From a virus (lineage: Duplodnaviria > Heunggongvirae > Uroviricota > Caudoviricetes): 45,439 nt of DNA. Where the stretch lies: IMG/VR virus record IMGVR_UViG_2872678658_000002; one strand, given 5' to 3'. A program made the translations under genes and the position numbers. Under the pieces are notes generated by a model. That model saw nothing but the letters and a program-made list of their open reading frames with translations. It had not been told where the DNA came from and searched no databases. Shown here piece by piece: positions 30,925 to 31,234 of the stretch; within the stretch, counting starts at the first letter, position 1; each line of letters begins with the position of its first letter.

Positions 30925-30999
30925 TGGAGCGGGCAGCGGGAATCGAACCCGCATCATCAGCTTGGAAGGCTGAGGTAATAGCCATTATACGATGCCCGC
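30925..30999 (-). tRNA. tRNA-Gly (anticodon UCC)
   Basis: 75-nt cloverleaf read by hand, anticodon loop CUUCCAA; closely resembles remembered E. coli glyT-type sequence. Confidence 0.8.
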
Positions 31000-31002
31000 A
31001 TA

Positions 31003-31078
31003 TGGTGCCGACTACCGGAATCGAACTGGTGACCTACTGATTACAAGTCAGTTGCTCTACCTACTGAGCTAAGTCGGC
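31003..31078 (-). tRNA. tRNA-Thr (anticodon UGU)
   Basis: 76-nt cloverleaf, acceptor GCCGACU/AGUCGGC, anticodon loop CUUGUAA. Confidence 0.8.
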
Positions 31079-31080
31079 AC

Positions 31081-31157
31081 TGGACCGCCACCGGGGACTC
31101 GAACCTCGCACACTCAACTTAAAGGGTTGACGCTCTTTCCTGATGAGCTAGTGGCGG
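31081..31157 (-). tRNA. tRNA-like gene with atypical anticodon loop CCUUUAA (anticodon UUU if canonical; C at position 33)
   Basis: foldable cloverleaf with 7-bp acceptor stem, D and T arms (T-loop UUCGAGU), abuts next tRNA with 1-nt spacer. Confidence 0.5.
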
Positions 31158-31158
31158 C

Positions 31159-31234
31159 TGGTGGCCCTTGCTGGATTTGAACCAGCGACCTGGCGATTAT
31201 GAGTCGCTCGCTCTCACCACTGAGCTAAAGGGCC
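31159..31234 (-). tRNA. tRNA-Ile2-like (anticodon CAU, ileX/ileZ type)
   Basis: 76 nt, anticodon loop ACUCAUAA; body far closer to remembered ileX than to elongator tRNA-Met. Confidence 0.75.

Follow-up and report, generated by a model that had tools for sequence, protein, structure and literature searches.

A putative self-promoted tRNA operon in a lambda-like Escherichia coli prophage and its atypical tRNA-Lys(UUU), an apparent anticodon-shifted relative of argN and candidate nuclease-insensitive spare tRNA

The stretch of DNA analysed here (45,439 nucleotides, IMG/VR virus record IMGVR_UViG_2872678658_000002, referred to as the window) is, by the annotation of homologous loci, a lambda-like E. 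coli prophage integrated beside serU, and it carries four tRNA genes on the minus strand at positions 30925-31234. The locus is read here as a small tRNA operon with a predicted promoter of its own, located in the late region of the prophage and representing a variant of the ileZ-argN-argO cassette. Its second gene, an atypical tRNA-Lys(UUU) designated Lys*, is by its sequence a member of the argN-scaffold family in which the anticodon has shifted from Arg to Lys, with the additional change U33C. In the interpretation favored here, to which a probability of roughly 0.4 is given, Lys* would serve as a nuclease-insensitive spare tRNA-Lys: its body does not carry the features by which PARIS AriB and P2 Old, both Toprim nucleases, cut the host tRNA-Lys, it bears a nucleotide unlike the host's just 5' of the PrrC cut, and Lys* could thereby sustain lysine decoding once these defences destroy the host tRNA-Lys.

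The four genes were called by ARAGORN and scored with the Rfam tRNA model RF00005, which has a gathering score of 29 bits:

31159-31234, minus strand: tRNA-Ile2 (anticodon CAU, ileZ type); tRNA-Met/Ile2 by ARAGORN, Rfam 72.5 bits, tRNA-Ile in the PGAP annotation
31081-31157, minus strand: Lys*, atypical tRNA-Lys(UUU); ARAGORN, Rfam 44.4 bits, tRNA-Lys in the PGAP annotation
31003-31078, minus strand: tRNA-Thr(UGU); ARAGORN, Rfam 73.8 bits, 100% identical to thrU
30925-30999, minus strand: tRNA-Gly(UCC); ARAGORN, Rfam 64.9 bits, 100% identical to glyT

All four genes encode the CCA end, and the spacers between them amount to 1, 2 and 3 nt. An earlier note on this DNA, based on folding by hand, had described four cloverleaves with near-zero spacing between Q and the lysis genes; ARAGORN and Rfam bear out the former, and the annotation of homologous loci the latter. 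The anticodons assigned in that note (CAU, UGU and UCC) were all right, as was the loop CCUUUAA with C33, while the "possible extra 5-prime G" of the second gene is in fact the 1-nt spacer between the CCA of Ile2 and C1 of Lys*, a nucleotide which is polymorphic (G or A) in otherwise identical copies. The note had further regarded the second member as non-canonical, possibly a pseudo-tRNA or a tRNA with unusual decoding. Its non-canonical features stand and do not dissolve into those of an ordinary tRNA upon closer assignment of the loop, but the gene can be assigned, since ARAGORN, Rfam and PGAP all give tRNA-Lys(UUU). The tRNA genes themselves are already on record, NCBI/RefSeq annotating tRNA-Ile, tRNA-Lys, tRNA-Thr and tRNA-Gly.

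Lys* has the sequence CCGCCAC UA GCUC AUCAGGAAA GAGC G UCAAC CCUUUAA GUUGA GUGUG CGAGG UUCGAGU CCCCG GUGGCGG U CCA. It conforms to the elongator tRNAs described by RF00005 in that it scores above the gathering score and forms a cloverleaf with stems of 7, 4, 5 and 5 bp containing a single mismatch, and it retains U8, A14, G18-G19, G53-U54-U55-C56, A58, C61, a purine at position 37 and the 3' CCA. The anticodon U34-U35-U36 is that of a tRNA-Lys, and U36-A37-A38, as needed for the modification t6A, is present as well. Its oddities are C33, which replaces the uridine of the U-turn here as well as in all the other Lys* copies inspected, the pair C1-G72, the discriminator U73 in place of A73, and an A51.C63 mismatch. 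The last of these is no sign of a pseudogene, because the T stem of the host thrU also has an A.C mismatch. In the body of the molecule, homology to tRNA-Lys is lacking, the nearest relatives being Arg tRNAs of the argN family and not lysT or phage T5's tRNA-Lys. The hallmarks of a pseudogene, namely the loss of universal residues or stems and a failure to be detected by tRNA models, are absent from the window copy. Many relatives do show them, namely those of the TW11681, W13-16 and PPompW/RM9322 types, and decayed or odd-loop alleles of the same position in the cassette (slot 2) went undetected by the Rfam tRNA model. Compared with its Arg relatives, which score 53-56 bits, Lys* is 9-12 bits lower, and the argN of phage Stx2a_F349 reaches 43.0 bits. 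The cloverleaf energies of Lys* and of these Arg relatives are similar; minimum-free-energy folding of single tRNAs was uninformative, as no real tRNA gave a clean cloverleaf by it.

The relationship to argN follows from several comparisons. In alignment, the cluster is about 83% identical to the ileZ-argN-argO cassette of Stx phages, with Lys* positioned on the argN scaffold. Among 120 viral loci, a sample picked via a slot-2 scaffold pattern that fixes 32 positions of that gene, the main architectures were Ile2-Arg(UCG)-Arg(UCU), which is the type of the sampled Stx phages (64 loci), and Ile2-Lys(UUU)-Thr-Gly, which is the type of the window (at least 45 loci), and the earlier note was thus correct in stating that the set departs from that usual in Stx phages. 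A re-sample was anchored outside slot 2, in the phage-specific Thr-Gly junction, and comprised 115 cassettes; here slot 2 was occupied by Lys*(UUU) in 55 cases, by Arg(UCU) on the same scaffold in 35 and by odd alleles in 6, and it was empty in 19. The Arg(UCU) alleles carry the same UCAAC/GUUGA anticodon stem as Lys* (in one locus, L216, the D loop and variable loop are the same as well), and the loops differ from that of Lys* by just U33C and C35U. Because UCU and UUU differ only by C35U, a single transition suffices to convert an anticodon for the Arg codons AGA/AGG into one for the Lys codons AAA/AAG. The scaffold family as a whole has evolved as tRNA: across 21 scaffold variants the cloverleaf pairs are intact in 97.7% of cells, and at 7-66, 27-43 and 30-40 both partners have changed in a compensatory manner. 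A different route, direct descent of Lys* from the Arg(UCG) argN with G30-C40 replaced by A30-U40 as an adaptation removing the Old motif, was considered and then rejected in view of the Arg(UCU) alleles, which already possess this stem.

Anticodon loops seem to change especially often in slot 2, between Ile2 and Thr. Its odd alleles (L152, L156, L161, L183; L004 1728-1802) include one with a 6-nt loop, CCAGGU, and one with a UUA anticodon and U37, called "Stop(tta)" by ARAGORN; Yersinia phage YeP1 contains a "pseudo-TTG" copy with A33, and Rfam detects none of these. The pair G3.U70, the main identity element of AlaRS, occurs in the argN of Stx2a_F349 (L002 1581-1657) and in Lys* of the PPompW type (L003 1581-1656 and L136 601-676). 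In 2 of the 120 loci (L026 and L047), an extra degenerate paralogue of the scaffold (CCGTCAC...GGTGACGGTCCA) is located about 646 nt 3' of tRNA-Gly; its anticodon/variable region is over-long, ARAGORN calls it "Val(aac)", and an alternative loop, ACGUAUU, would give a GUA anticodon with C33 and U37.

Of the other members, Ile2 has exactly the sequence of ileZ from the Stx and PPompW phages and does not vary among the cassette types; compared with ileX of K-12, it agrees at 68 of 76 positions and has the pairs C4-G69 and C5-G68. The tRNA-Thr and tRNA-Gly genes are 100% identical to K-12 thrU over 76 nt and to K-12 glyT over 75 nt, respectively. This identity stops exactly at the ends of the mature tRNAs (30999-31003 and 31078-31081; L006 389-748), the phage copy having neither the host spacers nor tyrU, and Thr and Gly being joined by a mere 3 nt.

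Upstream of the first gene, a putative promoter dedicated to the tRNA genes was recognized from a consensus scan and from its conservation:

31244-31272, minus strand: sigma-70-type promoter of the tRNA operon (TTGCAA, 17 nt, TATTAT)

The TATTAT hexamer is followed by a GC-rich discriminator of 9 nt which ends at tRNA position +1. Of 46 distinct upstream contexts, 45 retain the arrangement TTGnnn-17-TATTAT-9 (137 of the 142 copies); the -10 hexamer is invariant throughout, although the spacer and the sequence further upstream are strongly divergent. This footprint of conservation amid divergent flanks supports a functional, Q-independent promoter of the cassette, from which expression in lysogens may in turn be inferred.

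As to the amino acid carried by Lys*, the anticodon is the main feature by which the LysRS and the ArgRS of E. coli recognize their tRNAs. Identity for the E. coli LysRS lies mainly in U34-U35-U36, A73 making a minor contribution (Tamura and colleagues 1992; McClain and colleagues). ArgRS requires C35 and A20. Lys* is therefore most likely charged with lysine and lost to ArgRS, its acceptance by LysRS being perhaps reduced by U73. Reportedly, tRNAs without U33 are functional but poorer in vitro, a finding ascribed to Dix and colleagues (1986) and Ashraf and colleagues (1999), and Lys* probably reads AAA and AAG, less efficiently than a tRNA with U33 would. Bacterial t6A synthesis has a strict requirement for 36-UAA-38, whereas U33 is not contacted in a base-specific manner (PMC13276492), and since U36-A37-A38 is kept, t6A37 is probably formed in Lys*.

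The case for insensitivity to nucleases is based on positions mapped in other systems. Recognition by AriB involves U36-A-A-U39-C40|A41 together with U16, with U39A abolishing cleavage and A41C and U16C impairing it (PMC12409363; PMC11464382); where the host tRNA-Lys has U16, U39, C40 and A41, Lys* has C16, G39, U40 and U41. P2 Old, the classical lambda excluder, amputates anticodon arms that bear paired CNG motifs at positions 28-30 and 40-42, cutting after C, with thrU as the preferred target and tRNA-Lys also being cut (PMC12445682). At these positions Lys* has CAA and UUG, i.e., no CNG motifs. For PrrC, the cut has been placed 5' to the wobble base by the Kaufmann laboratory (PMC1950546), which is the position used here, whereas PMC12409363 instead puts it between U35 and U36; C33 of Lys* adjoins the former on its 5' side. 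Phage genes for tRNA-Lys are known to rescue from PARIS AriB and PrrC, while host tRNA-Lys does so poorly. Lys* combines the anticodon UUU of the targeted host tRNA with substitutions at the recognition positions, as is characteristic of resistant tRNAs, and by this comparison neither AriB nor Old should be able to cut it, and PrrC may be unable to as well.

An advantage of this kind is to be weighed against the more obvious benefit of supplying codons. Codon usage of the late and early genes of the prophage was compared with that of 39 K-12 genes. Odds ratios in late and early genes, respectively, were 1.8 and 3.3 for ACA, 1.6 and 2.1 for GGA, and 1.4 and 2.6 for AUA, such that Thr, Gly and Ile2 would add supply for rare A-ending codons. 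The highest values were those of AGA (5.5 and 8.3) and AGG (5.7 and 12.5), neither of which is served by the cassette, and in that the shift from Arg(UCU) to Lys discarded its most useful specificity. AAA is not enriched (odds ratio of 0.91 in late genes), AAG is enriched about 1.7-fold, the total use of Lys codons is near the host level, and the host carries an array of many tRNA-Lys(UUU) genes. The earlier note had pointed out that Ile2, Thr(UGU) and Gly(UCC) decode A-ending codons and had proposed a codon-usage comparison with the host. All members do read such codons, and the fit is modest for Ile2, Thr and Gly, but the rationale fails for the Lys member. Plain codon supplementation, in which all four tRNAs including Lys* would boost the A-ending codons of the phage, is the classical explanation of ileZ-argN-argO and agrees with the enrichment of ACA, GGA and AUA and with that of AAG, which a tRNA-Lys(UUU) also reads. 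It is nevertheless improbable for the cassette as a whole, given that a tRNA with C33 would be a poor booster of supply and that the tRNA for the most over-used rare codons is precisely the one that was lost, and as the reason for the presence of the Lys gene it was rejected on account of the unenriched AAA and the plentiful host genes. Host tRNA-Lys(UUU) genes are numerous and there is no excess demand for AAA; the host-unlike body is the sole benefit of Lys* that could be seen, and it is this which favors an anti-defence role.

A number of observations weigh against that role. U73 is not the discriminator of a tRNA-Lys, and C33 removes the canonical uridine of the U-turn. The UCAAC/GUUGA stem and C16 were inherited from Arg(UCU) ancestors and, being already present in the Arg(UCU) relatives, are not adaptations of the Lys allele. 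Variant partner tRNAs, as would accompany a defence against such nucleases, were not found: the Thr partner is the host thrU sequence throughout, and there is no tRNA-Asn(GUU). Rescue from PARIS toxicity usually requires a resistant Thr in addition to a resistant Lys, and the host thrU gives little or no protection from P2 Old. Nor is C33 specific to Lys. In viral contigs (loci L223-L461 and L581-L689, the tRNA-Lys(UUU) genes being those with a TAGCTCAG D arm), its share is about 1 in 120 for tRNA-Lys(UUU) against about 7-8 in 120 for Thr(UGU). The remaining points against it concern the decay and polymorphism of Lys* and are given below together with its distribution.

In absolute numbers, C33 was seen in 48 unrelated viral tRNA-Lys(UUU) genes, or 38 distinct ones, and likewise in at least 89 distinct Thr(UGU), 43 Met(CAU) and 12 Arg(UCU) viral genes. 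Phages evidently tolerate tRNAs with C33, but selection against PrrC is not demonstrated by these counts; given the UGU, CAU and UCU controls, the proposal that C33 is a convergent, Lys-specific adaptation against PrrC is not supported. As a separate observation, C33 is several-fold commoner in Thr(UGU), the main target of P2 Old, than in Lys(UUU).

With regard to distribution, the 421-bp cluster region was found at a coverage of at least 80% in 553 of 5426 complete E. coli genomes, and the intact Lys* allele in about 360 of the 5426 (approximately 7%), in diverse hosts and flanking contexts. A Lys*-like copy is present in 798 genomes, in just 279 of them at an identity of at least 99%. In a rank-spread sample of 30 genomes, about 55% of the Lys*-like copies were decayed and unannotated, a figure which is rough owing to the over-sampling of EHEC and ETEC clones in the genome set. 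The lesions include U8C together with C11U (TW11681), further changes such as G18A and others (W13-16), and, in the PPompW type of EHEC strains, the loss of U12 from the D stem along with G3.U70, this type not being annotated by PGAP. Beside these decayed copies the neighbouring Ile2, Thr, Gly or Arg genes are intact; W13-16, for instance, has 7 changes in Lys* and nearly none in Ile2, Thr and Gly. The junction-anchored sample gave 0.0043 (Lys*), 0.0057 (Ile2), 0.0033 (Thr) and 0.0016 (Gly) mismatches per copy per nt, which shows that the polymorphism of Lys* is no lower than that of its neighbours and that there is no special constraint on it. A first polymorphism analysis had suggested strong conservation of Lys*; this was dropped, as the sample had been selected on 32 fixed positions of Lys* and the junction-anchored repeat disagreed.

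These data bear most directly on a rival explanation that is tenable, if also doubtful, according to which Lys* is a neutral by-product: C35U in an Arg(UCU) gene would have ended the reading of AGA/AGG and left a harmless, redundant tRNA with a Lys anticodon that probably functions poorly, U33C would have been a second hit, and the allele would persist and spread by riding between useful conserved tRNAs that recombine among lambdoid phages, while slowly decaying. The required step is the one transition from UCU to UUU, and slot 2 is indeed also occupied by Arg(UCU) alleles that share the stem of Lys*; the 5-12-fold over-use of AGA and AGG makes the loss of the Arg tRNA look costly and not designed. 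The decay of about 55% of the RefSeq E. coli copies through several independent lesions beside intact neighbours, the defective alleles in the same slot (the 6-nt loop and "UUA" with U37) and the deficit in bits relative to the Arg relatives fit this explanation as well, and the low allele diversity points to a young allele. It is less easily reconciled with the finding that the exact intact form is the commonest one (43 of 55 in the junction-anchored viral sample, and the 279 genomes at or above 99%) and that it is spread over many flanking contexts and host lineages. Moreover, both changes in the loop always occur jointly, about 240 loci having yielded neither a U33/UUU nor a C33/UCU intermediate, Lys* is as conserved as Ile2 in intact cassettes, and decay of accessory genes is to be expected in cryptic prophages anyway.

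Two further explanations, both of them highly improbable, assign Lys* a more specialized role. In one of these, Gly(UCC) and Lys(UUU) would decode the G GGA AAG site of G/GT, Lys* altering the rate of -1 frameshifting and hence the G:GT ratio. An in-frame G GGA AAG is indeed located at about 13446-13452 (minus strand), at the end of the tail chaperone gene G (13428-13850). The lambda G/GT frameshift site is reportedly G GGA AAG (Levin, Hendrix and Casjens, 1993), and in E. coli, slippage into the -1 frame at X XXA AAG is said to depend on the weak interaction of tRNA-Lys(UUU) with AAG (Tsuchihashi and Brown, 1992). Yet lambda has the same site without any tRNA genes, the Gly gene is identical to that of the host, and similar phages have Arg(UCU) or an empty slot 2. 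In the other, which seems just as remote, Lys* would act outside translation as a decoy that titrates a nuclease or toxin specific for tRNA-Lys. C33 and U73 could hinder its use by the ribosome or its charging while the UUU loop attracts nucleases such as PrrC, and over-expressed viral tRNAs have been raised as possible inhibitors of AriB (PMC12409363). Against this, a phage tRNA-Thr left the endogenous tRNA unprotected from P2 Old, which argues for replacement over competition, and Lys*, having none of the AriB determinants, would be a poor decoy for AriB.

Returning to the favored interpretation of Lys* as a nuclease-insensitive spare tRNA-Lys, it can be extended to a more general and rather unlikely scheme, in which slot 2 would function as an "anticodon cartridge" that re-targets a host-unlike body to the codon family under attack. 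The first tRNA-Lys of a temperate phage with immunity to AriB, Old and PrrC would in that event be the UUU/C33 allele, and its expression in the lysogen, driven by its own promoter, would also blunt the abortive infection that the lysogen itself directs at tRNA-Lys.

The cassette is embedded in a conventional lambdoid gene order, with the genes for Q, RusA and DUF968 upstream of the tRNAs and those for holin, lysozyme, terminase and lambda-type head and tail proteins downstream. The features flanking the cassette are as follows:

31429-32118, minus strand: late antiterminator gene Q, directly upstream of the cassette; the near-identical SMS-3-5 and DE17 loci have the annotation "bacteriophage antitermination protein Q"
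31417-31445, minus strand: late promoter resembling pR' (TTGCAA-17-TATATT), which overlaps Q at its end; consensus scan only
31342-31365, no single strand: hairpin of a bidirectional intrinsic terminator resembling tR', lying between Q and the promoter of the tRNA genes; scan match on the plus strand
30702-30717, minus strand: terminator-like hairpin about 210 nt 3' of tRNA-Gly, in phage sequence at the IS junction; consensus scan
27995-30701, plus strand: ISCro1 insertion (IS66 family), outside the cassette proper; open reading frames of 225, 115 and 523 aa, DE17 annotation, SMS-3-5 comparison
27710-27925, minus strand: class II holin, first lysis gene downstream; annotation of homologous loci

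By analogy with the lambdoid gene order, the hit at 31417-31445 may be taken as pR'. Read on the minus strand, the terminator at 31342-31365 consists of the stem CCCGC/GCGGG followed by UUUUUUGUG. The stretch of the hairpin at 30702-30717 is also found in the SMS-3-5 locus, which is free of the insertion sequence. The 2.7-kb ISCro1 element, with boundaries taken from the SMS-3-5 comparison and open reading frames at 28048-30663 (plus strand) annotated in DE17 as tnpA, tnpB and ISCro1 transposase, sits between tRNA-Gly and the holin gene; it is missing in the SMS-3-5 homologue and common to only about 13 of the 5426 complete genomes. With the element in place, the late operon is cut off from Q, pR' and the tRNAs, and late transcription may be crippled as a result. 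In DE17, the locus of which is near-identical, the integrase beside serU is annotated as frameshifted, suggesting that the prophage is cryptic. Elsewhere in the window, the early region contains a second tRNA-related prophage gene, encoding the epoxyqueuosine reductase QueH of the queuosine pathway (35041-35727, minus strand; PF02677, 221 bits), and further elements are the sok antitoxin RNA with hokD (34799-34973, minus strand), the DicF small RNA with dicB (39954-40005, plus strand) and the tRNA-Ser(CGA) gene serU at the prophage end (44459-44548, minus strand). In some related phages, a small RNA of the STnc100 family lies just 3' of the cassette (L005 1195-1400 and L161 4124-4330; 158 bits in phi296); none was detected in the window.

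It is already known that the cluster is common and annotated, and phage tRNA cassettes and anti-defence tRNAs are well described. In the literature on ileZ/argN/argO and on prophage Lys-Thr-Gly clusters, no description of an Ile2-Lys-Thr-Gly cassette was found, nor did the searched literature present the prophage "tRNA-Lys" as an anticodon-shifted argN member with C33, the hypervariability of the slot, or the difference at every mapped determinant of AriB and Old. Were Lys* indeed insensitive to these nucleases, tRNA-based counter-defence of the T5 type would extend to common temperate lambda-like prophages, and its natural route would have been the re-targeting of a phage Arg tRNA body by a point mutation in the anticodon and not the capture and mutation of a host tRNA-Lys; given the promoter of the cassette, lysogens could produce this tRNA, and protection by PARIS, PrrC or P2 Old could be altered. 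Should Lys* instead be a decaying by-product, it would still provide a clear natural case of an anticodon shifted from Arg to Lys, and it would caution that a "tRNA-Lys" annotated in a prophage may not be an ordinary one.

Among known systems, the closest is the ileZ-argN-argO cassette of Stx phages (933W, Stx2a_F349, phi296), with which the window shares the site 3' of Q, the identical Ile2 gene in first position, the conserved promoter, the 1-nt spacer between the first two genes, and a second gene on the same scaffold (about 83-90% identical). It differs from them in that slot 2 contains UUU with C33 where the Stx phages have UCG, in that argO (Arg UCU) is replaced by copies of thrU and glyT, so that the pair of Arg tRNAs is not present, and in that no stx genes follow the cassette. 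Closer still at slot 2 are the Ile2-Arg(UCU)-Thr-Gly cassettes of IMG/VR (L140, L171, L216), which have the cassette, the slot and the UCAAC/GUUGA stem in common with the window; their loops are CUUCUAA or UUUCUAA, with U33 and C35, they read AGA/AGG where Lys* would read AAA/AAG, and they score 53-56 bits as opposed to 44. In a wider sense, Lys* resembles the anticodon-shift (recruited or remoulded) tRNA genes, in which the isoacceptor class is switched on an otherwise unchanged body, and the starting point in the example at hand is likewise Arg(UCU): the tRNA-Arg(UCU) of E. coli was reportedly made into a working tRNA-Thr(UGU) by a point mutation in the anticodon (Saks, Sampson and Abelson, 1998). 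The shift in Lys* differs in being natural, in having taken place in a phage cassette and toward Lys, and in being accompanied by U33C, the function of Lys* being a prediction. Finally, phage T5's PARIS-resistant tRNA-Lys(UUU) (PMC11464382, PMC12409363) shares with Lys* the UUU anticodon, C16 and residues at 39-41 that are unlike the U-C-A of the host. Unlike Lys*, which is Arg-derived (C1-G72, U73, C33), the T5 tRNA is a recognisable homologue of tRNA-Lys (G1-C72, A73, U33), and T5 is a virulent phage that carries a complete set of resistant partner tRNAs, whereas Lys* resides in a temperate phage next to a host-identical Thr, with its resistance predicted from sequence.

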